Assembly: GCA_040081675.1 (NCBI GenBank)
Contig: JBEBGB010000003.1
Location: 1-48,340, forward strand
DNA from: Vicinamibacterales bacterium
GTDB lineage: Bacteria > Acidobacteriota > Vicinamibacteria > Vicinamibacterales > CAVVIG01
Length of the DNA: 48,340 nt
Direction of reading: 5' to 3'
Shown: positions 4,464 through 39,626 of the stretch, piece by piece
Layout of the letters: the number at the start of each line of letters is the position of its first letter
Position numbering within the stretch: the first letter of the stretch is position 1
The notes under the pieces: model-generated
The model's database searches: none
What the model was told of the DNA's origin: nothing
Seen by the model: the letters and a program-made list of their open reading frames with translations, nothing else
Position numbers and translations under genes: made by a program

Positions 4464-5741
4464 ATCACCTCCCCGCCATCCCTCCCCATCGTCATCATCG
4501 GCGCCGGTGCGTCTGGACTGGCCACCGCGATTTTCACGCGGCGGTTGAATTCATCTGCGCGGGTCGTGCTGGTCGACGGCGCGCGGCGGCCCGGCGCGAA
4601 GATCCTCGTCAGCGGAGGGGGGCGCTGTAACGTCACCAACGTCCGCGTCGACGAACGCGATTTCTCGGGCGGGTCGCGTGCGTTCGTACGGCAAGTGCTG
4701 AAGGCACTCACCGTTCCAGAAACGGTCGCGTTTTTCAACGCCATCGGCGTTGTCCTGCACGAAGAGGCGGACGGCAAGCTGTTCCCCGACTCCGGTCGCG
4801 CGAAACAGGTGCTCGACGCACTGCTGCTCGAGTCGGACCGATGCGGGGTCGAGCGTCTGGACGCACACCGAGTTGACGCAATCGAACGAACGGGCGACGC
4901 ATTCGAGCTGCACGGGGCCGGCGAAGCCATGAGAGCTCGGTTCGTCGTGCTCGCAACCGGTGGTCAGTCGTTGCCGAAGAGCGGAAGCGACGGCGCCGGA
5001 TACGACTTCGCGCGCACGCTCGGACACACGATCGTTCCGCCTGTCCCCGCTCTGGTGCCGTTGCTGCTAGACCCTGCTTCCCCGCTCGCGCACGCATCGA
5101 TTGCGGGTGTCTCGCATCCGAGCGAGATCGCCGTGTGGATCGATGGACGAGTGTCTGCCCGCATCAGCGGGTCACTGCTATGGACACACTTCGGCGTCAG
5201 CGGACCGGCGGCGCTGGATGTATCGCGACACTGGGCGCGTGCGACGGCCGAAGGACAGCAGGTCCGGCTCACTCTGAATTTCTGTCCGGGTCTGGCGTTC
5301 GATGCAGTCGATGCGCGATTGGTACAGTCGATCGCAGAGCGCCCGCGAGTGTCTCTCCAAACGATCAGCTCGACGATGGTTCCTGGAGCGGTGGCCAGCG
5401 CACTGTTGCGAGCGCTCGACGTGGACGTTGCGGAGCCGGCAGGAAGTGTGACGCGCGACGCCCGGCGTCGCCTGGCCCACGGCTTGGTCGAATGGCCACT
5501 GCCGGTGGTCGGCACCAGGGGCTACAACTACGCTGAAGTGACAGCGGGTGGCGTATCGCTCTCCGAGGTGGACTCGAAGACGCTGGAGTCGCGCGTGTGT
5601 CGCGGACTCTATCTGGTCGGCGAGGTGCTGGACGTCGACGGCCGCCTGGGTGGCTTCAACTTCCAGTGGGCGTGGTCGAGCGGGAACGTCGTGGCGAGGG
5701 CCCTCGCGACTGCATTAGCACGCACTGACTCAAGTTCGTAG
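4464..5741 (+). CDS. HI0933/YhiN-family NAD(P)/FAD-dependent oxidoreductase; start uncertain (ATC at 4464 proposed)
   Basis: IVIIGAGASGL FAD motif (4488-4520) is in frame upstream of the track's TTG at 4545; KILVSGGGRCNVTN, ATGG.S.PKSGSDG, THFGVSGP, VTAGGV, GEVLDVDGRLGGFNFQWAWSSG. Confidence 0.92.
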   Translation: MTSPPSLPIVIIGAGASGLATAIFTRRLNSSARVVLVDGARRPGAKILVSGGGRCNVTNVRVDERDFSGGSRAFVRQVLKALTVPETVAFFNAIGVVLHEEADGKLFPDSGRAKQVLDALLLESDRCGVERLDAHRVDAIERTGDAFELHGAGEAMRARFVVLATGGQSLPKSGSDGAGYDFARTLGHTIVPPVPALVPLLLDPASPLAHASIAGVSHPSEIAVWIDGRVSARISGSLLWTHFGVSGPAALDVSRHWARATAEGQQVRLTLNFCPGLAFDAVDARLVQSIAERPRVSLQTISSTMVPGAVASALLRALDVDVAEPAGSVTRDARRRLAHGLVEWPLPVVGTRGYNYAEVTAGGVSLSEVDSKTLESRVCRGLYLVGEVLDVDGRLGGFNFQWAWSSGNVVARALATALARTDSSS

Positions 5742-6999: not shown

Positions 7000-7337
7000 T
7001 ACCAGCGAGGCTCACGGCGTGCGCCGCCACCACCACCACGATTGCCGCCACCGCCGCCGAACCCGCCGCCACCACCGAACCCGCCTTCGGGCTTCGGCCG
7101 GGCCTCGTTCACGGTCAGGGCGCGGCCCCCCATCTGAAAGCCGTTGAAGTCGGTCGCGGCCTTCTGCGCTTCTTCGTCGGTCGTCATCTCGACGAACGCG
7201 AAGCCTCGAGCACGGCCGGTTGCCGCATCGCGCATCACACGCACCGATTCAACGTTCCCAGCCTGGCTGAACAGCTCTTGTAGCTCCGTTTCACCAGCGG
7301 TGTAGGGGAGATTCCCGACGTATAGCCTGCGACCCAT
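6999..7337 (-). CDS. RRM RNA-binding protein with Gly-rich tail
   Basis: RNP2 LYVGNL, RNP1 RGFAFVEM, VNEARP, poly-Gly tail; GAGGAG RBS. Confidence 0.96.
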   Translation of the reverse strand: MGRRLYVGNLPYTAGETELQELFSQAGNVESVRVMRDAATGRARGFAFVEMTTDEEAQKAATDFNGFQMGGRALTVNEARPKPEGGFGGGGGFGGGGGNRGGGGGARREPRW

Positions 7338-7471
7338 TCCTGCTCCTCACGCAAAGGTGGCGCGCTCGTCGGCTCGGCGACAGCGGGGAGGAGAGAACGA
7401 GGCATCTGAACGGAAGCTCGATCGGCTCTCGGCGCGGGCGAAGCAGGCGGGGGAAGCCACCAGACCGGCGT

Positions 7472-30585: not shown

Positions 30586-31675
30586 ACGCCGCCGCCAGTG
30601 TCTCGGTGAACCGGCGCGCGCAGACCGTGACGTCGTAGCGACGCTCGACGAGCTGGCGACCGCCTCGCGCGATCGCTCGCGCAAGGTCCGCACGCCCAGC
30701 AACGGTTTCGATGGCAGATGCCAGTGCTCGCGCATCGCCCGCGCGTACGAGCAGGCCTGTTTCGCCGTCGACGATCGCCGACTCGATGGCCCCGGCGCGG
30801 GTAGCCACCACCGGTCGTTCCGACGCCAGCGCTTCGAGGAGGACGTTGGGCAGCCCGTCTCTGTCGCCGGCTTCGTCGACAACCGATGGAACCGCCACGA
30901 GATGTGCGGCGGCGTAGAGCGCCGGCAGGTCGGCGTGGCTGGCACTGCCATGCCACGTGACGCGAGGGCCGATACCGAGCGAGTCCGCCATCGAGCGAAG
31001 CGAGGCGCCGTCGGGGCCGTCGCCCACGATGCACAGCGTCCACGGCACGCGGACCCTGGCAATCGCGTCGAGCAGGACGTTGAATCCCTTCTTGGGAACC
31101 AGTCGACCGACGGCGAGCACGCGCAGCTCACCGTCCGCAGGCAGAGGCGACGGTGCAAAACGCGTCAGGTTGACGCCGTGAGGAATCAGCGCTGGGGTGA
31201 CACCGAGTCTGGCGATCTCCACCTGCGCGTCCGCGTTGCAGACCACCACACACCGCGCGCCAGCCGCTCGACGACCGAGCTCTGGCCGCGGCACCGTTCG
31301 GGCATCCTTGGCATGCGCCGAGAAGCCGTAGGGCACGCCCAATCGTTCAGCGGCGCACGCGGCAACCGCCGCCGGGTGATGCGCGAAGTAGCCGTGAACC
31401 GCGCGCGGTCGGCGGGAGCCCAACTCTTCGACAATCTCACTCGCCTGGTCTTCAATTCTGCCGCTCTTCAGCACGCGAACGCGCGGCGACAGCCGGGCGG
31501 CATCTGGATGTGGCGCAAGGCCGTCGCCGGGCTTGGTGGCGAACGCTGCCATGAGCAGCCCTGCCTGCTCCAAGGCCGCCAGCTCGGGCAGCGCAAACGT
31601 TTCCGAGCGCCGGGGAAATCCGCTGAGGACCACGACAACTCCTGACTCGCGTGGGCTCCGCTGGTCAGTGGACAT
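30578..31675 (-). CDS. GT4 glycosyltransferase (WcaL-like)
   Basis: FPRRSETF, VHGYFAH, SAHAKD, VGRLVPKKG, GDRDGLPNVLLEALA. Confidence 0.92.
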   Translation of the reverse strand: MSTDQRSPRESGVVVVLSGFPRRSETFALPELAALEQAGLLMAAFATKPGDGLAPHPDAARLSPRVRVLKSGRIEDQASEIVEELGSRRPRAVHGYFAHHPAAVAACAAERLGVPYGFSAHAKDARTVPRPELGRRAAGARCVVVCNADAQVEIARLGVTPALIPHGVNLTRFAPSPLPADGELRVLAVGRLVPKKGFNVLLDAIARVRVPWTLCIVGDGPDGASLRSMADSLGIGPRVTWHGSASHADLPALYAAAHLVAVPSVVDEAGDRDGLPNVLLEALASERPVVATRAGAIESAIVDGETGLLVRAGDARALASAIETVAGRADLARAIARGGRQLVERRYDVTVCARRFTETLAAAYD

Positions 31676-32885
31676 GGACGCCGGCTCCCGTTGCGCGCGT
31701 CTTCGCCGCGATCGGACGCATCGTTGGTTGTTGATCCGGGCTCAGCAGGTTCGACACGAGCCGAGGCACCTGTTCGAGCGCGGTGAAGCGCAGCGTCGCG
31801 GGCCGCAGCGACGTCTTGACGGTCGCCATCCAGCGTGTGAGCGCCTGAGAAGAAAGGTCGCGCTGCGCGAGAACGTCGACGAGTCCGATTTCAGCGAAGC
31901 GGGTTGCTCGAATGGTCTGTTCACGCCGGGGAGCTTCGCGCGGCACGAGCAGCGCAGGTTTCCGATAGGCGAGGATCTCGCAGACACTGTTGTAGCCCGC
32001 CATACCGACCACGCGTGTCGCGCGCTCGACGAGCGAGGCGCCGTCGTCGGTGAAGTCGATCAGATGGAAGTCGTCTCGTGTCGCGGCAACGGCGCGCACG
32101 TGCTTCAATGCCGGCTCCGGGCAGAACGGCCCGGTCAGCAGCACGCCCGTCTCCCCGCCTGGAAAGGACGACTCCGAGAACGCGAGGGCCAGTTCCGTAC
32201 CGTCCTGACCTCCGCCCGCCAGGCACAGGGTGAAGGGACGCGCGAGCGCAGCACCCGTCGAAGCAGCGGCCTCGCTGTCGTGGGGCGACCGCCGATCGAG
32301 GTAGCCCACGAATCGCACGCGATGCCGGGTCGACTCGGGGAAGTGGCACTCTTCCGACAGGTCGTAGACCGACGGGTCGCCGTAGATCCAGACCTGGTCG
32401 TAGTACCGCTCGATGCTCGCGTGGTGGCCGGCGGCGGCCCACTCGCGCGCCACGACCGACGGCTCGTCGAGGATGTCGCGGAGGCCGAGCACGGTCTTGA
32501 TCCGTCGTCCCATGCGCAGAGCGGCCAGTGTGGGCTCCAGTTCGCCGAGTGCGCCGAGGGGGACGTTGTCGACAATCAGCAGGTGGGGGTCGAATCGCTC
32601 GAGCGCCGCGCGGATGGTCTGGGAGCGAAGGCCGACGATGTGATCCAACGGGCACGACAGGTGGCGGGCGCTGTACGCGCCAGTCATCTGGTGCTTGCCG
32701 AGTGCGGGCAGCGTGATGCAGTCGATGCCCGCAGGCATGTGGAATGCACCGCCCAAGTGCGTCCCCGAGATGAGCAGAATCGACACGTCGACGTGACGGT
32801 CGACGATCGCACGGGCCAGCGCGAGATTGCGCCGTACGTGGCCCAACCCCATCGTGTCATGCGAGTAGAAGGCGATTCTGTGCAC
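31665..32885 (-). CDS. GT-B glycosyltransferase, COG4671-like; first gene of glycan operon
   Basis: YSHDTMGLGHVRR, LGLRDILD, AGGGQDG, MAGYNSVCE, EQ.IRA; GTG 32885 preceded by AGGAGG (32890-32895). Confidence 0.9.
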   Translation of the reverse strand: MHRIAFYSHDTMGLGHVRRNLALARAIVDRHVDVSILLISGTHLGGAFHMPAGIDCITLPALGKHQMTGAYSARHLSCPLDHIVGLRSQTIRAALERFDPHLLIVDNVPLGALGELEPTLAALRMGRRIKTVLGLRDILDEPSVVAREWAAAGHHASIERYYDQVWIYGDPSVYDLSEECHFPESTRHRVRFVGYLDRRSPHDSEAAASTGAALARPFTLCLAGGGQDGTELALAFSESSFPGGETGVLLTGPFCPEPALKHVRAVAATRDDFHLIDFTDDGASLVERATRVVGMAGYNSVCEILAYRKPALLVPREAPRREQTIRATRFAEIGLVDVLAQRDLSSQALTRWMATVKTSLRPATLRFTALEQVPRLVSNLLSPDQQPTMRPIAAKTRATGAGVHVH

Positions 32886-32951
32886 GCGTCCTCCTGAAAC
32901 TGGCTGGTGTTGCGACCGCGCAACACCGGTGCGACGTCGGTGTATCGCGTC

Positions 32952-33004
32952 GCTGGTTCTAAAGGGCTCGCCGCGAGCGAGGAAATATAGGGAACCGCCG
33001 ATTT
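32952..33004 (-). promoter_or_regulatory. Candidate ECF-sigma promoter, copy 1 (glycan operon)
   Basis: AAAT-N9-CCTATATTTCC-N13-GCCCTTTAGAACCAGC; same blocks and spacing as 35236-35288. Confidence 0.75.
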
Positions 33005-33060
33005 CCGAAACGGGTCTACGCGCGATGCGGTTCGCACCCTGCTGGCGCACGCGACCACAA

Positions 33061-33114
33061 CAGAGTGCATGCTGGTACGACGCGCGTTGTCAGAGGCAGG
33101 TCAAGGGGATGTCA
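33061..33114 (-). promoter_or_regulatory. Three 11-bp-period TGACA direct repeats plus CACTCTG element
   Basis: Plus-strand TGTCA 33088, GGTCA 33099, TGTCA 33110; CAGAGTG at 33061-33067, 20 nt away; same layout as 38834-38898. Confidence 0.65.
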
Positions 33115-33120
33115 AAACAT

Positions 33121-33234: not shown

Positions 33235-34611
33235 CTATCGCCGCCTGGAACTGCTGTTGAGCGCTTTGGGAAGATCAACGCGCCCAGCGCCAAGACCGCT
33301 GACCGGCACGGCGTCCTGCGACAGGTCTGTGATGGCGTGGCTCAGCGACAGTTTCCTGAACACCTGTACTTGGAGCGCCACGGCACCCGACAAGAGCGCC
33401 GTGCTGAACGATGTGCCCGACACTGCAGCGTAGAAGCCACCTGGAAAACTGGTAACAACCGCCTCGCCTGGCGTGCCGAGACGGACGGGCGACACACCGT
33501 AGTTCGAGAACACGCTCAGAGTGTCGAGCGTGGTGGTCGAGCCGGCGCCGATTGCATGCGAATCGCCCGCCGGGAAGCGCACGAGGGTCTGCCCGTCGTT
33601 GCCGGCAGCGGCCACCGGAATCGCGTTGAACTTCTGCGCGTAGTTCAACGCTCGAGCGAGCTCGTTCGATTTCTCCGGCATGCTGAAACTCATGTTGATG
33701 ACGCGCGCCCCGTGGTCCACGGCGTAGTAGACCGCCTGCACGATGTCCGATAGCTGTGAGGTGCCGTCCGCACGGAAGGCCTTCAGCGGCATGATGCGGG
33801 CGGTTGGCGCGACGTAGTGCACGAGCCCGGCCACCATGGTCCCGTGTCCAAAGGCCGGCGGCAATGACTCCAGAATGGCGCCGACCGACTGATTCAGCAG
33901 CGCCGAGGTGGAGGTGTTGACCTGCTGGATTCGCAGCTGTTCCAGCACCGCGCCGACCGACTGCTCGAGGACGGCACCGACGGACTGATCGAGGTCGGCG
34001 ATGTCCGACACGGTGCCGGGCAGATTGCGCGTGAAGTCGTATCCGGGAACGACCAGACCCTGCAGCAACGGATGGTTGGCGTCGACGCCCGTGTCGATAA
34101 TCGCCACGACCGAGTTACCGGTTGCCATGGCTTGTGCGGCTGGCAGACGCAGGATTCGTCCGGCAGCCTGAGCGGCGTAGCTCCGTGGGACGGTCCTCCC
34201 GAAGTAGCTCACGGGTGTGTTGGTGCTGAATGCCTCCAGCACAGCGCCGACCGACTGGTTCAGGAGAGGACTCGGCGTACGCTCTGCGACATCGACGCGT
34301 TTGTCGCGCTCGAAGTTCTCGACATCCAGGTCGGCTTCCACTTCCAGCTCGATCTCGACATTGGTCTTGCTCGCTGGTACTGCCACCAGCACGATCGGCG
34401 CCTCAGCGTCGTTGCGGAGTACCTCGACGACGATGAGGCTGTGTCTGGTCAGCACGGTCTCGAGGAGACCGTCTGCGGCTCGCAGCATGTACCGCCGGGC
34501 CTCCTGGGCCTGACCCGACGCCGCGCTGAGAAGTCCCAGCAGGCACGCCACAGTCAGCCGAATGACGCGAAGACCGGCGATGTGTCTGGTGTGTCGCATG
34601 TACATGCTCAC
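33235..34611 (-). CDS. Secreted S8 (subtilisin-like) serine protease with four QSVGA(V/I)LE repeats
   Basis: Signal peptide ending GQA, I9-like prodomain, triad IIDTG / GHGT / SGTSFS, oxyanion AAAGN. Confidence 0.92.
   Translation of the reverse strand: MSMYMRHTRHIAGLRVIRLTVACLLGLLSAASGQAQEARRYMLRAADGLLETVLTRHSLIVVEVLRNDAEAPIVLVAVPASKTNVEIELEVEADLDVENFERDKRVDVAERTPSPLLNQSVGAVLEAFSTNTPVSYFGRTVPRSYAAQAAGRILRLPAAQAMATGNSVVAIIDTGVDANHPLLQGLVVPGYDFTRNLPGTVSDIADLDQSVGAVLEQSVGAVLEQLRIQQVNTSTSALLNQSVGAILESLPPAFGHGTMVAGLVHYVAPTARIMPLKAFRADGTSQLSDIVQAVYYAVDHGARVINMSFSMPEKSNELARALNYAQKFNAIPVAAAGNDGQTLVRFPAGDSHAIGAGSTTTLDTLSVFSNYGVSPVRLGTPGEAVVTSFPGGFYAAVSGTSFSTALLSGAVALQVQVFRKLSLSHAITDLSQDAVPVSGLGAGRVDLPKALNSSSRRR
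33868..34257 (-). repeat. Intragenic peptide repeat QSVGA(V/I)LE x4
   Basis: Copies at 34234-34257, 33964-33987, 33940-33963, 33868-33891; differences mostly synonymous. Confidence 0.95.
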
Positions 34612-35234
34612 TCGGGGCGAGGTTCGCTCAAAGGAAGCCTGATGCTCCGGCGGTGGTCCTCGACCGGGATGTGGAGCTCGAGCCCCTCGTTGGGTTCGTA
34701 CTCCATCTGGAACTCACCGAACTCGTTGCTCAGGCCTCTGGCAACGACGCGACGTCCGCGTGTGACGAGGATCGGCACGTGAGCCGGCGGCGGATCGGGG
34801 ACACGACGGTTCGACACCTGACCGACGAGTGACACGCGAGGCGCGCCCGACAGCTGCTCGAACTTCAGGTGGATCGTGAAGTCGCCAGCCTCGTACAGCG
34901 TCTGACGGTTCATCTCCTCGACAGGACCGCGGACACCCTCCGCGGCCGGCATGCCGACGCTGCCGAACACCAGGCGAGCGGCCAGCGCAGGAAGTGACAG
35001 CGTTCGCTCGGGCCGATGCAGTGAAAAGGCCGCCAGGGCAAACCGGACCAGGTGAACGGGTGGTTCGACGGCGGTATCCTGCCTGGCCGCAGCCGCAACC
35101 GCATCCAGGCGCCGAATCAGTGCGTCGCAGGAGAGGCAGCCGTCCGCCAGATGCGTGCGCATGCCAGCTTCGAGCTCCGGCGCAGCCACTCCGCGGACGA
35201 AGTCGACCCAATGAACGATGTCGAAATGGCTCAT
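34608..35234 (-). CDS. Putative soluble Zn-finger anti-sigma factor with C-terminal beta-rich domain
   Basis: N-terminal HLADGCLSC (ZAS-like Hx4CxxC), no TM helix, linker LVFGS...EGVRG, C-terminal SNEFGEFQM; ATG 35234 overlaps CHAT stop. Confidence 0.7.
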   Translation of the reverse strand: MSHFDIVHWVDFVRGVAAPELEAGMRTHLADGCLSCDALIRRLDAVAAAARQDTAVEPPVHLVRFALAAFSLHRPERTLSLPALAARLVFGSVGMPAAEGVRGPVEEMNRQTLYEAGDFTIHLKFEQLSGAPRVSLVGQVSNRRVPDPPPAHVPILVTRGRRVVARGLSNEFGEFQMEYEPNEGLELHIPVEDHRRSIRLPLSEPRPE

Positions 35235-38185
35235 TGCTGGTTGTATAGGGCCCGAGTTCGGCCCGGAAATATAGGCATCGCAGTATTTTTTCGCCGCCCG
35301 CGGGGCGTTGGTGCCTTCGTCGGCAGAGCGGCAGCCCGGCCGGTGGCCTGACCGACAAGCGTAAATGGTGCCCAGTGATAGGGATGCGGGAATCGAGCGC
35401 GCAGGGAGCGCATCGCCGTCTGCACGGCCACGCCCGTTGGCTGACCCTGGGCGAGGTTGGCGTAGAAGGCGGCCATGAACTCTGCGGTGCTCAAGTCGTC
35501 CACCTGCCACATCGTCAGCAGGAGTGAGCGTGCGCCCGCGTAGAGGAACCCGCGCATCAACCCGACCAATTCGTCGCCGCCCATGACCGCGCTCAGGCCG
35601 GTACCGCAGCCGCTGAGCGTGACCAGATCGGCATCGAGCGTCAGACCGTAGGTGTCAGCGAGTGAGAGATCCCCATCGGCCAGTCGAATGGACGACAGCA
35701 TCGGATTGTCCCGCCGGAAGTACCCGTGGGTTGCGATGTGCACGTAGCGCGACACCGCACCGAGCTCACGCAGACACGCCCGGGTCGCCATCGTCCCGGT
35801 GCGGAGGGTTGGCGCCGGAAGGCACTGCGCCACCTGCGTCGCCTCGTCGCCGATATGCGGGGCGAAGCCATCCGCAAGCGCGAGTACCAGGCTGTCGTGG
35901 TGAGGCGACGGCGGCCTGATCTGGCACAAACGGAACACGCTGGCGCTCGGCGCGTACGAGATGGCGTACGCGTCGATCAACGCGCCACCTGCGTCCTCCA
36001 GCGCGTGAAACGGCAGATAGTGCAGCACTCCGTGCGGCACGACCACCAGGTGCTCTGCACGCAACAAGGGGCGAACTGGCGCAACGAGCTGATCGTAGAG
36101 CTCGCGCAGATGTCGTCGTGTGGCCGCCGACAGGACTGACGCGAAGGTTCGCACGTAGTCTGGCCCGAGCTGGAATTTCGCCAGCTGGAATCGGAGCAGT
36201 TGGAGGGTTCGCGTCACCTGCGTGGTGGTGGCCGCCAGTGGTGACACGCGAACCAGGTCGGGGCCGACCACGCACGCGTAGATCTGGTCGCGTGCGACGA
36301 AGAACTCGAGGAGCATCGTGTCTGGCGGCAGCGCATCCTGGATGTCGGCAAGGCTCGCCGATGTTCCGGTGTGCAGCGATGCCAGGCCTCCGTCGGATTC
36401 GCCAAGGCGGCTCAGCGCCGCCGAAAGCTGCCGCTCGCGGCCGTCGGCCGCTGCCCTCATCTGCCGCAGGCGCTCGTCGTCGAGCGAGGACTGCATCACG
36501 GCCTGCGCCATTCGACGCTGGCACGCGTGCAGCTGCTGCCTGAGCGGGCCGACCAGATCGGGCGTGTGCGTGCCAGCAGCGCGTGGCGTCAGCTCCGAGG
36601 CGCGGAACGCCAGCAACTCGACCAGGCCGCGCGATTTCGCGTCCTCGATGAGACGGAATGTCTCGGCTTCTCTACGCGAGCTGTCATGGCGACCGATAGC
36701 CAGACGAATCAGCCCCTCGTAGACAGCCAGCTTGTCGCCGAGGAATGGCGCCTTCAGATCCTCGGCCGCAATCTGTGCACGCAGCCGCTCGAGCGCCTGC
36801 CTGGCTCGGGTCAACGAGGCTTCGGCCGCGCTCGTGTCGCCGCGCGCCTCGGCCACTTCCCCGCACACGAGGTCCACCTGCCAGGCGAGTGACGATACTC
36901 GAACCTGGGCCAGCGCGGCCTCGGCGGCTCGGGCGCCGCGCGCCGCCTCTCGCAGGTCGCCTCGTCGAAGGGCGATCCGGGTTCGCAACACCTGCCATCG
37001 CACGCGAGTCGAGGGGGACATCGGTCGACGTTCCGCGCCTGCCATCAGTCGACGCGCTTGAGCATCGCGTCCCAGCTGAGAGCAGACGATGGCCCGACCG
37101 AGGTCCACGGTTGCGAGCCAGGGCTGGTTGCGGTCGGCCTGATAGAGCGCCCGCGCTCGAGCGAAGGTCGCCAGCGCCGCCACACCGTCGCCGTGTCTGG
37201 CCAGGGCGGTGGCCAGAAAGACGAGTGACTTCGCCCGCTCGTACCGCAGGCCCAAGGCGGTGAATCCTCTGGCCGCCGCTTCGGCGAGACGACGTGCCCC
37301 AGGTAGATCGTTCAACTCGAGGCAGACCTCGGCTTCGTCCATGTCGCACAACGCGCGGTGATATCGATCGCCGAGTTCCTCGCTCCGGGCACGCGCCACG
37401 GCGTAGGCCGTCAGCGCCTGTGTGTATCGACCGCACAGGAAATGCAGGTAGGCAATGTTGTAGTCGGCGGCCGCCACCAGCATCGTGAGCGCATGTGTCT
37501 CGCTGAACATGCGAACCTTGGCGTACGCCTCGAGCGCGTCGTCGAAGGCATTGAGACTGGTCAAGCACACGGCGATGTTGCGCATCGCCTCGGCCGCGTC
37601 CTGGTGCTGATCGTGGGCTCGAAGTGCCGACTCGGCGCGCCGGTAGCAGGCGAGCGCCTGCTTGAATCGATCCTGCCTGAAATGAAGGTTGCCGACGTTG
37701 CTCTCGAGACGCGCGAGGCGGAGGTCGTCGTCTCGTCGACGAAAGATCGCGCGCGCGCGCCTCGCCCAGCGTTCGGCCTTGTCGTAGCGCCCCAGGTGCA
37801 CCAGCGTGTGAATGGCGCCACTGTAGGTGATGGCCTTCTGCAGTCGGTCGCCCTCAGCGTCGAACTGGGCGATCGCGTCGGTGTAGCGGGCGAGCGCCAG
37901 ACGAAAGCGAGAGCCGAGGGCGAGGCCGTGCCCCTCGGCCCGAAGTGCACGACCTCGGGCAAGCCGATCGCGCGAACGGTCCGCGAGCAAGCGCGCTGTT
38001 CCGGCCAGGCGCTGCCCGCGCCCCAAATCGATCCGCGACTGCCTCGGCACGTCGTCGGCGAGCGCGATCGCCCATTGTGCGGCGTCACGTGTGTGAACGG
38101 TGCGAGCCCACGCTGTCGCCGCGGCCGCGTTCGCCCGCGACAGCCGATCGAGCAGCCGTCGCGACGGCATCGCCGCAACCGCCAT
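35231..38185 (-). CDS. TPR-CHAT caspase-like cysteine protease
   Basis: Long TPR array; EDAKSRGL, VVPHGVLHYLPFHAL, YAPSAS, catalytic HIATHG and LSGCGTG, WQVDD, HPYHWAPF. Confidence 0.93.
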   Translation of the reverse strand: MAVAAMPSRRLLDRLSRANAAAATAWARTVHTRDAAQWAIALADDVPRQSRIDLGRGQRLAGTARLLADRSRDRLARGRALRAEGHGLALGSRFRLALARYTDAIAQFDAEGDRLQKAITYSGAIHTLVHLGRYDKAERWARRARAIFRRRDDDLRLARLESNVGNLHFRQDRFKQALACYRRAESALRAHDQHQDAAEAMRNIAVCLTSLNAFDDALEAYAKVRMFSETHALTMLVAAADYNIAYLHFLCGRYTQALTAYAVARARSEELGDRYHRALCDMDEAEVCLELNDLPGARRLAEAAARGFTALGLRYERAKSLVFLATALARHGDGVAALATFARARALYQADRNQPWLATVDLGRAIVCSQLGRDAQARRLMAGAERRPMSPSTRVRWQVLRTRIALRRGDLREAARGARAAEAALAQVRVSSLAWQVDLVCGEVAEARGDTSAAEASLTRARQALERLRAQIAAEDLKAPFLGDKLAVYEGLIRLAIGRHDSSRREAETFRLIEDAKSRGLVELLAFRASELTPRAAGTHTPDLVGPLRQQLHACQRRMAQAVMQSSLDDERLRQMRAAADGRERQLSAALSRLGESDGGLASLHTGTSASLADIQDALPPDTMLLEFFVARDQIYACVVGPDLVRVSPLAATTTQVTRTLQLLRFQLAKFQLGPDYVRTFASVLSAATRRHLRELYDQLVAPVRPLLRAEHLVVVPHGVLHYLPFHALEDAGGALIDAYAISYAPSASVFRLCQIRPPSPHHDSLVLALADGFAPHIGDEATQVAQCLPAPTLRTGTMATRACLRELGAVSRYVHIATHGYFRRDNPMLSSIRLADGDLSLADTYGLTLDADLVTLSGCGTGLSAVMGGDELVGLMRGFLYAGARSLLLTMWQVDDLSTAEFMAAFYANLAQGQPTGVAVQTAMRSLRARFPHPYHWAPFTLVGQATGRAAALPTKAPTPRGRRKNTAMPIFPGRTRALYNQQ
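35236..35288 (-). promoter_or_regulatory. Candidate ECF-sigma promoter, copy 2 (anti-sigma/S8), inside the CHAT 3' end
   Basis: AAAT-N9-CCTATATTTCC-N13-GCCCTATACAACCAGC followed by A-ATG of the anti-sigma gene. Confidence 0.75.
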
Positions 38186-38829
38186 CAGATCCCTCGCGCT
38201 TTCAGCGCCGATTCGAGCTTCTTGAGACAGCGACCGCGAATGAATCCGATTGAGCCGACGGCCAGGCCGAGGCGGGCGGCAACTTCGGTGTAGGGCACCG
38301 GTTCCTCGGTGAAGAACAACATCCGTACGAGCTCCTGACAGCGTCCGGGCAGGTCAGCGACAGCATCATGGACTGACTGGTCGCGCTGCGCCTCCTCGAT
38401 GATCCGGGCGGCGTTCGGGTCGTCATCGACAACGGCGTCCCCGACGGATTCAGCTCCGACCCACCCAACCTCGCGCTTCGCACGCTGCTTCGCCTTGAGC
38501 GACTTGTGCTGCGCCACGCTCACGAGCCAACCCTTGAGCGCTTCCGGTTTGCGCAGCTTTGGCAGTTCGGTGACGAGCTCGACGCAGACCGCCTGGAAGA
38601 TGTCGCCCGCGCCGTCGTGCGTGGCACCGTACTTCAGGGGAATGGAATAGATCAGGCGTTTGTACCGGTTGACGATGAGAGCCCACGCCGCTTCGTCGCC
38701 TTGGAGGCACCGGCGCACGAGCACCGCATCGGGCACCTCGGCCGGCGACGCCTCCGCGCGCAGCGGCGCCACCGGCTCGGTGGTGGCCATCGGCGGCCCG
38801 GTTCGGCGCATCTGCTCACTGGGCATCAC
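38185..38829 (-). CDS. ECF RNA polymerase sigma-70 factor
   Basis: Region 2 LVRRC..GDEAAW..IV.RY..LIY, DIFQ, LKGWL; region 4 LPGRCQELV, YTEVAARLG..VGSIGFIRGRCL; TGATG overlap with CHAT; start could be ATG 38826 or 38790. Confidence 0.93.
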   Translation of the reverse strand: MMPSEQMRRTGPPMATTEPVAPLRAEASPAEVPDAVLVRRCLQGDEAAWALIVNRYKRLIYSIPLKYGATHDGAGDIFQAVCVELVTELPKLRKPEALKGWLVSVAQHKSLKAKQRAKREVGWVGAESVGDAVVDDDPNAARIIEEAQRDQSVHDAVADLPGRCQELVRMLFFTEEPVPYTEVAARLGLAVGSIGFIRGRCLKKLESALKARGI

Positions 38830-38833
38830 TCCA

Positions 38834-38898
38834 CAGCGTGGCGAAGCGCAGAGCGCGGCGTGTCAAGCGAATGTCAGGAAGATGTCAAGAAAGTGTCA
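38834..38898 (-). promoter_or_regulatory. Four 11-bp-period TGACA direct repeats plus CACGCTG element upstream of ECF sigma
   Basis: Plus-strand TGTCA at 38861, 38872, 38883, 38894; CAGCGTG at 38834-38840, 20 nt away. Confidence 0.75.
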
Positions 38899-38960
38899 AA
38901 AAGGCGGCGACACTCTCTCGACCATTCATCGCGAATCTGAACGAACGCTCGGCCTGCGCA

Positions 38961-39626
38961 TCAAGATCGCCGATTTTCGAGGCGGCATCCATTACTCGCA
39001 GCATCGCGTTCGCGACGTCGACGGGATTTTCGCTGCTGTCGCAACACGAGCAATCCAAGTCCTGCGCCAACAAGCGCCGCACCCGCAAGAATCCCGACAG
39101 CTGCATACGTGACTGGTCCCGGTGGCGGCGACACGCTGCGCCGTGCGGCGTCGGTGGCAGCCCTTCGTCGTGCCAATTCCAGATTCAGGCTCTCCTCACC
39201 TTGCCGCATCGCCCAAAGATGGTTCGCCTCGAGCAGCGGTCGCATGAGCGGCGCAAGCGCCTGGAGCAGCGGCTTCTCCGCACGAATTCGCCAGTCGAAC
39301 TGGGCGTTCACAAACTCGTCGTCTTGCGTGATCGTCCACACTCCGCGTCCAACGAAGTCTCCGAACGCCTGGATGGCAAACCCGTCGGGATAGCGGCTCT
39401 CGGTGACCACGAAGTCCCAGAGCAGCGTGTAGGGCAACCATCCTTTGGTGCGCAGGCGCACGCGTTGGTTGAGTCCGCGCTCGTCTGGCGGCGTCACCTC
39501 CTCGACCGACAGATACACCGCCGGCCACCACCGCGAGAGGTCCAGTGGATCGCGCAGCACATCGGCTACTTCGCCGTTCGTGCCGCGGACTCTCCACGAC
39601 GTGATGAAGTGATAGTCGTTCGACAT
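38961..39626 (-). CDS. SRPBCC/polyketide-cyclase-like protein with C-terminal membrane anchor
   Basis: YHFITSWRV, RWWP.VY, GWLPYTL, GDFVGRGVW, ANH.WAMRQGE; C-terminal hydrophobic helix. Confidence 0.82.
   Translation of the reverse strand: MSNDYHFITSWRVRGTNGEVADVLRDPLDLSRWWPAVYLSVEEVTPPDERGLNQRVRLRTKGWLPYTLLWDFVVTESRYPDGFAIQAFGDFVGRGVWTITQDDEFVNAQFDWRIRAEKPLLQALAPLMRPLLEANHLWAMRQGEESLNLELARRRAATDAARRSVSPPPGPVTYAAVGILAGAALVGAGLGLLVLRQQRKSRRRRERDAASNGCRLENRRS

Follow-up and report, generated by a model that had tools for sequence, protein, structure and literature searches.

We identified an array of four TGACA boxes at an exact 11-bp period in front of an ECF sigma factor gene, and a three-box copy of it in front of an adjoining exopolysaccharide (EPS) operon, in the 48,340-nt stretch of Vicinamibacterales DNA analysed here (hereafter, the window). 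The array in front of the sigma gene is genuine and represents a conserved cis-regulatory element, probably part of an activator-dependent promoter and the predicted site of an OmpR/PhoB-family response regulator that would be encoded outside the window.

On the plus strand, TGTCA starts at 38861, 38872, 38883 and 38894, exactly as the first-pass annotation had reported, and positions 38861 to 38898 read TGTCAAGCGAA TGTCAGGAAGA TGTCAAGAAAG TGTCA. Read on the minus strand, towards the ECF sigma gene, the hexamers are TTGACA, TTGACA, CTGACA and TTGACA, separated by pyrimidine-rich spacers, and their spacing lies within the 10-11 bp, centre to centre, of direct repeats in OmpR/PhoB-family arrays. 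This array (the sigma array) is placed between a small SRPBCC-like gene (38961..39626, minus strand) and the sigma gene (Table 1). TGTCA by itself was not enriched in the window, with 63 matches against 81 expected. The four-box pattern, allowing up to two mismatches, had one match in the window and was found in none of 100 dinucleotide-preserving shuffles. We also ran a motif-blind control, in which any 5-mer present in three copies at a fixed period of 8-14 bp was sought over the whole window. At period 11 the sigma array was the sole site, with about 0.08 expected per simulated window. A tandem repeat with a 9-bp period, GGGACGGTC in three copies, was present near the contig start (positions 126-160).

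Table 1. Features of the two arrays and of the genes behind them, in window coordinates.
Feature	Position	Strand	Remarks
Hairpin, 15-bp RNA/DNA	38884..38922	minus	includes boxes 1-2; peculiar to the sigma array
Box 1 (distal), TTGACA	38894..38899	minus	
Box 2, TTGACA	38883..38888	minus	
Box 3, CTGACA	38872..38877	minus	
Box 4 (promoter-proximal), TTGACA	38861..38866	minus	aligns with the proximal box of three-box arrays
-10-like CACGCT, weak, putative	38835..38840	minus	20 nt after box 4; from aligned promoters
ECF sigma factor gene	38185..38829	minus	possible starts GTG 38829, ATG 38826, ATG 38790
TPR-CHAT protease gene	35231..38185	minus	HIATHG and SGCGTG motifs; start overlapping the stop codon of sigma
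orfX, 208 aa	34608..35234	minus	N-terminal four-helix domain and beta-sandwich
S8 subtilase gene, secreted-type	33235..34611	minus	last module gene
Second array: TTGACA (33115..33110), TTGACC (33104..33099), CTGACA (33093..33088)	33088..33115	minus	11-bp period
-10-like CACTCT, putative	33062..33067	minus	20 nt after the proximal box; inside the GCACTCTGT block
GT28-like glycosyltransferase gene	31665..33050	minus	first gene of the EPS operon

The second array, which the first-pass annotation had overlooked, sits between the subtilase gene and the GT28-like gene. On the minus strand it reads TTGACA tcccc TTGACC tgcctc TGACA, with the same period and orientation as the sigma array. Behind it lies an operon made up of the GT28 gene, two GT4 genes and genes for an ABC exporter and a heparinase II/III-like protein. 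When up to two mismatches were allowed, the three-box pattern gave three matches in the window against 0.06 expected, and neither pattern scans nor a profile search revealed a third array in the window.

We then compared the window with 80 related Acidobacteriota loci, a set of 766 kb with the window included, searched on both strands. TGACA or TGTCA was rare upstream of the sigma gene, any copy within 350 nt being found in 12 of the 80 loci. Exact 5-mers in at least three copies at periods of 10-12 were absent from the 450 nt upstream of sigma in all 80 loci. The exact three-box pattern, which proved too strict, matched none of the loci (0/80); relaxed scans then recovered loci L001, L016, L041 and L045. 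Over the 766 kb, a search for three TGACA boxes with no more than one mismatch gave five matches, all at period 11: an overlapping pair in the sigma array, a single match in the second array and two matches in L001. Periods of 8-10 and 12-14 gave none. The exact pair TGACA-N6-TGACA occurred, over the whole sample, only in L016, L041, L045 and the sigma array of the window. A profile search with nhmmer, using a profile made from the arrays, yielded seven arrays in five sequences at E <= 6.5e-4, the next match having E = 20.

The arrays follow the distribution of a response regulator gene. All four loci that are linked to this regulator and have a readable upstream region (L001, L016, L041 and L045) carry an array, and no array was found in any of the 75 loci without it. 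In a fifth linked locus, L072, the contig starts inside the receiver gene, and only this single-domain receiver gene was matched. The next-closest CHAT-type loci (L002-L004) are among those without an array, and they have a different upstream gene. The array-bearing sequences number five, and three of the four assessable regulator-linked loci are close relatives; because only two sigma clades are represented, the co-occurrence of array and regulator amounts to few independent events.

The locus closest to the window, L001, comes from a contig of an Acidobacteria MAG. Its sigma factor is sister to that of the window in a maximum-likelihood tree (support 98/92; 59% identity), and the GT28 and GT4 proteins of the two share 73-85% identity. 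It carries one array before the sigma gene (TTGACA, TTGACG, CTGACA; 4746-4773) and another before the GT28 gene (TTGACA, TTGACC, CTGACA; 7314-7341). Before the GT28 gene, the window and L001 were identical at 34/36 positions of the array and the next 7 nt, at 62/143 positions upstream, at 5/12 of the spacer and at 9/9 of GCACTCTGT, a pattern that is a phylogenetic footprint. Across 22 aligned boxes, the T, A and C of T-G-A-C-A were invariant and the spacers varied. Together with the footprint (34/36 vs 62/143), these boxes showed the conserved core and free spacer of OmpR/PhoB-family arrays. In the three Terriglobia loci (L041, L045 and L016), the intergenic region contains GTTAC(C/G)-N5-TTGACA-N5-(G/A)TGACA. 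Three boxes are present in three of the four arrays of the window and L001 and in all three Terriglobia arrays; aligned on the -10-like anchor, the sigma array of the window has one extra distal box compared with the others.

Directly upstream of its sigma array, L001 encodes a two-component system. The response regulator (225 aa) is of the OmpR family, with REC and Trans_reg_C domains, and the sensor kinase has HAMP, HisKA and HATPase domains and a large N-terminal sensor region; the stop codon of the kinase gene lies inside box 1. Searches by tblastn with the L001 proteins detected regulator orthologues in L041, L045 and L016 (58-62% identity) and kinase matches only in L041 and L045 (42-43% identity); in L016 the contig end cuts the regulator gene, and nothing follows beyond it. 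In these three loci the regulator gene, together with the kinase gene in L041 and L045, is divergent from a receiver/sigma/orfX operon. The recognition helix and wing of the regulator are nearly identical between L001 and the Terriglobia loci, which fits the conserved box. The first-pass annotation had proposed an OmpR/PhoB-type direct-repeat site, and this proposal gained support from the L001 array with its adjoining regulator and kinase, from the repeats in L016, L041 and L045, and from the 75 loci that lack arrays. Its statement that no such regulator is encoded in the window also stood: a linked regulator of this type is present in L001, L016, L041 and L045, and none was found inside the 48-kb window, either by tblastn with the L001 regulator and kinase or by Pfam scans of the main window ORFs.

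The neighbourhood of the two-component system showed some further features. In L001 the sigma gene adjoins the two-component system, and no orfX or CHAT homologue is present. The L001 kinase gene ends in a GC-rich hairpin with TTTTT behind it (4722-4747), similar to an intrinsic terminator, and the T-run enters box 1. A single-domain receiver gene heads the array-driven operon in L041 (4300-4720), L045 (4269-4715) and L016 (708-1110), and the corresponding gene of L072 lies at 22-430. The receiver ahead of sigma and orfX in the Terriglobia suggests a second phosphorylation-dependent layer.

The promoters themselves were then assessed. For no box in either window array or in L045 was there a -10 partner at 16-18 nt, so that a canonical sigma-70 promoter (a -35 hexamer followed, 16-18 nt on, by a -10 with A2 and T6) was lacking at the boxes. 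Promoter-like sites numbered zero at both window arrays, and the only one in L045 was unrelated to the boxes; terminator-like sites were absent from both window arrays and L045. Given this lack of -10 partners, the arrays are best explained by an activator-dependent promoter bound by tandem regulator monomers. At 20 nt after the proximal hexamer, the sigma array of the window has CACGCT, the second array and the one before the L001 GT28 gene have CACTCT, and the L001 sigma array has GACACT; TATGAT occurs 21 nt after the proximal hexamer in L041, L045 and L016. In the high-GC promoters these putative -10 elements are weak hexamers picked by alignment, and the start site is likewise presumptive. 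The first in-frame start codon follows the -10-like hexamer by 5-11 nt (5-8 nt for the sigma starts at 38829 and 38826), and use of these upstream start codons would yield a near-leaderless mRNA. The sigma start at ATG 38790 agrees with the homologues (~199 aa), which align from there.

Three further explanations were considered and rejected. A MerR-type long-spacer promoter was suggested, from the sequence alone, by the 20-nt gap and by the small palindrome ACGCGCGT that follows the second array; L001 does not retain this palindrome, and no MerR gene appeared in any Pfam scan. A-tract curvature was rejected on the GC-rich spacers of the L001 arrays. The third explanation was a conserved RNA structure. 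In the window, boxes 1-2 can pair with an upstream inverted copy (GTCGAGAGAGTGTC ... GACACTTTCTTGAC) to form the hairpin listed in Table 1, with z-scores of -3.4 (on 111 nt, where none of 200 shuffles folded equally well) and -2.8. The hairpin is not a common feature, because it is absent from the other four arrays, whose folding did not exceed that of shuffles (z -0.4 to +0.8); Rfam gave no match at E <= 1 for positions 38500-39300. Possibly the hairpin serves as an insulator or terminator for the upstream gene.

The sigma array heads a module of four genes (Table 1). Among the 80 related loci, searched by tblastn, a CHAT gene follows sigma in 72, orfX is present in 58 and the S8 subtilase in 52, counts that are limited by flank length; three of the eight loci without a CHAT match end within 0.6 kb of the sigma gene, and the five loci tied to the two-component system (L001, L016, L041, L045 and L072) all lack CHAT. 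An array and CHAT occur together only in the window, among 81 sequences. Sigma region 4 is near-invariant across the family, and the closest sigma relatives, with up to 75% identity, come from metagenome sources. The motif H28-x4-C33-x2-C36 of orfX, within its four-helix domain, was invariant in 34/34 aligned homologues. The fold of orfX was predicted with a pLDDT of 87.7, and the protein had no Pfam or NCBIfam match and no match at E <= 0.001 in a fold search against the PDB. Judging from the motif and the helical domain alone, orfX looks like a candidate anti-sigma factor with a zinc-type (ZAS-like) domain. The N-terminus of the S8 subtilase resembles a signal peptide, and the protein contains the peptide Q-S-V-G-A-(V/I)-L-E five times, with two of the copies back to back. 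In most CHAT-type loci (L002-L013 and others), the sigma gene lies directly behind the 3' end of a conserved ORF, and their promoter must therefore sit within or before that ORF. The coding end of this ORF, ~170 nt upstream of sigma, contains TGGAACG, and TGGAAC was found in 46 of 79 upstream regions. Literature searches found no earlier description, and the main text of PMC7826278 contains no occurrence of 'CHAT'.

Taken together, we propose the following mechanism. A membrane sensor kinase would phosphorylate the OmpR/PhoB-family response regulator, which would then bind head-to-tail, one monomer per 11-bp unit, on the same face of the helix. The proximal monomer would lie over the -35 region, ~20 nt upstream of the weak -10-like hexamer, and would recruit the housekeeping RNA polymerase. 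In this way the four-box array would switch on the operon for the ECF sigma factor, the TPR-CHAT protease, orfX as candidate anti-sigma factor and the S8 subtilase. The three-box copy would switch on the adjoining glycosyltransferase/exopolysaccharide operon. Carrying the same element, both operons would answer to one external signal. We infer that the regulator binds the boxes, that it activates rather than represses, that the -10 element and start site are those given above, and that the regulator is present in this genome.

A further step is more tentative. The arrangement may form a two-layer gate, in which an envelope or external signal sets the level of sigma factor and protease through the response regulator, CHAT cleaves the anti-sigma factor and thereby frees sigma, and EPS production is coupled to this switch; we regard it as possible but rather doubtful. 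With similar reserve, and by analogy, such a gate might represent a CRISPR-independent counterpart, in uncultured Acidobacteria, of the Craspase sigma-release switch. The combination found in the window, namely an array before a module of sigma, TPR-CHAT, ZAS-like orfX and subtilase, together with an array copy before an EPS operon, was unique among the 81 sequences.

Other readings of the boxes were weighed against the regulator-binding array. It is unlikely that the boxes form a true Pho box, at which PhoB/PhoP binding would place the sigma-CHAT and EPS operons under phosphate starvation control. The TGTCA/TGACA core would suit such a site, as would the resemblance to the B. subtilis PhoP architecture, given in PMC11870197 as four TT(A/T/C)ACA boxes at 11-bp periodicity, and PhoB ranks among the top NCBIfam matches of the neighbouring regulator. 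However, the third base of the hexamer is G and not among the quoted A, T or C, and the regulators of L001 and L045 scored 218 and 194 bits, with the PhoB cut-off at 296; the regulator with 218 bits was below every other equivalog cut-off as well. The kinase reached 98 against a PhoR cut-off of 334, and its large N-terminal sensor region with HAMP domain also argues against a Pho role. By these equivalog scores of the relatives' proteins, the neighbouring regulator is not a PhoB/PhoR orthologue. Pfam scans detected no pst or pho genes in the window, L001 or L045, and the targets are the sigma-CHAT and EPS operons, so the hint of a phosphate regulon in the first-pass annotation was not borne out. 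Nor do the boxes readily represent tandem sigma-70 -35 hexamers, acting without a dedicated regulator as overlapping housekeeping promoters or as a loading platform for RNA polymerase, a reading to which we give little credence. Three of the four boxes are exactly TTGACA, the sigma-70 -35 consensus, and some regulator-independent recognition of them is conceivable. Yet the -10 partners that this reading needs are missing from both window arrays and from L045, the distal box of the Terriglobia loci reads GTTAC(C/G), and TTGAC(C/G) is kept in that form as the middle box. Under this reading, exact 11-bp phasing and a restriction of arrays to loci with the regulator gene would be unexpected.

An autoregulatory promoter, whose boxes would be read by the ECF sigma factor encoded just downstream, is quite improbable. 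Many ECF sigma factors autoregulate (PMC10028731), and the sigma module is flanked by both arrays. On the other hand, sigma region 4 hardly varies, yet the 75 loci without the regulator, which include all CHAT-carrying loci of the sample, have no array, and few of the 80 loci have TGACA in front of sigma. ECF promoters, moreover, consist of a single -35/-10 pair and not of three or four phased repeats, and the CseB-controlled sigE promoter, described in PMC6767563 as no target of sigma-E, argues by analogy in the same direction. There is also slight probability that the boxes are occupied by a different phased-repeat regulator with no relation to the neighbouring two-component system, either a SARP or some other winged-helix protein. 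SARPs too use phased 11-bp direct repeats, and the first-pass annotation had named them as an alternative; no gene combining Trans_reg_C with BTAD was found by Pfam scans in the window, L001 or L045, and the arrays co-occur with an OmpR-type regulator. Least probable of all is a neutral tandem duplication, a minisatellite with no function, which we consider scarcely credible. The exact period and the uniformly pyrimidine-rich spacers would agree with it, but the boxes are kept while the spacers diverge, both within arrays and between genomes, and the same element stands at two promoters and is shared by two sigma clades.

For a module of undescribed function that is widespread in soil Acidobacteria, a regulator-bound, activator-dependent array would supply a concrete cis-element open to experiment, along with a candidate regulator, and it would connect the sigma-CHAT genes with EPS production. 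To define the regulon in whole genomes, the box consensus (TGACA-N6 in at least three copies) can be used. The mechanism itself would be ordinary, since phased direct repeats bound by an OmpR-family regulator are the established mode of the family.

In the arrays described here, TGTCA reads against the direction of transcription, the reverse of its orientation in the E. coli Pho box. In B. subtilis the PhoP boxes read towards the gene and cover roughly -60 to -20. With the B. subtilis PhoP region the sigma array shares four hexamers, the 11-bp periodicity and a TTNACA-type core, and the pstS site of L. paracasei, as given in PMC11870197, likewise contains an ATGACA box. Unlike the B. subtilis region, the arrays have G as the third base and non-Pho targets, most have three boxes and not four, and the regulator in the relatives is no PhoB/PhoP equivalog. 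The E. coli Pho box, described in PMC11870197 as a pair of 11-bp repeats containing CTGTCAT, to which tandem winged-helix domains bind, has the same TGTCA core and 11-bp direct repeats; it differs in having two units against three or four here, and the arrays lack a Pho context. The WalR/VicR site, given in PMC4168254 as TGTWAH-N5-TGTWAH, similarly consists of a hexamer and a 5-bp spacer, and the plus-strand boxes here are TGTCAA or TGTCAG followed by N5. In contrast to that site, position 4 is C instead of W, there are more than two repeats, the phylum is another, and the neighbouring regulator is no YycF equivalog (206 bits, with the cut-off at 340).

For the coupling of an ECF sigma factor to a two-component system, the closest comparison is CseBC-sigE of S. 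coelicolor. Two-component control is one of the modes of ECF control listed in the introduction of PMC7826278, and CseB-P is described in PMC6767563 as activating the sigE promoter; L001 resembles this system in having its ECF sigma gene beside genes for an OmpR-family regulator and a kinase. Unlike in S. coelicolor, the sigma factor of the window is accompanied by a CHAT protease and a candidate anti-sigma factor, the two-component system is not adjacent, the regulator scored 198 bits against a CseB cut-off of 350, and an array also heads the EPS operon. The module differs from the Craspase system in that no CRISPR gene is present here, and the likeness concerns the operon and not the array, orfX and Csx30 being compared by description. 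As in the Craspase module of Csx29, Csx30 and CASP-sigma, described in PMC10028731, a TPR-CHAT protease is combined with an ECF-like sigma factor and a sigma inhibitor, the last of these represented here by the candidate anti-sigma factor orfX.
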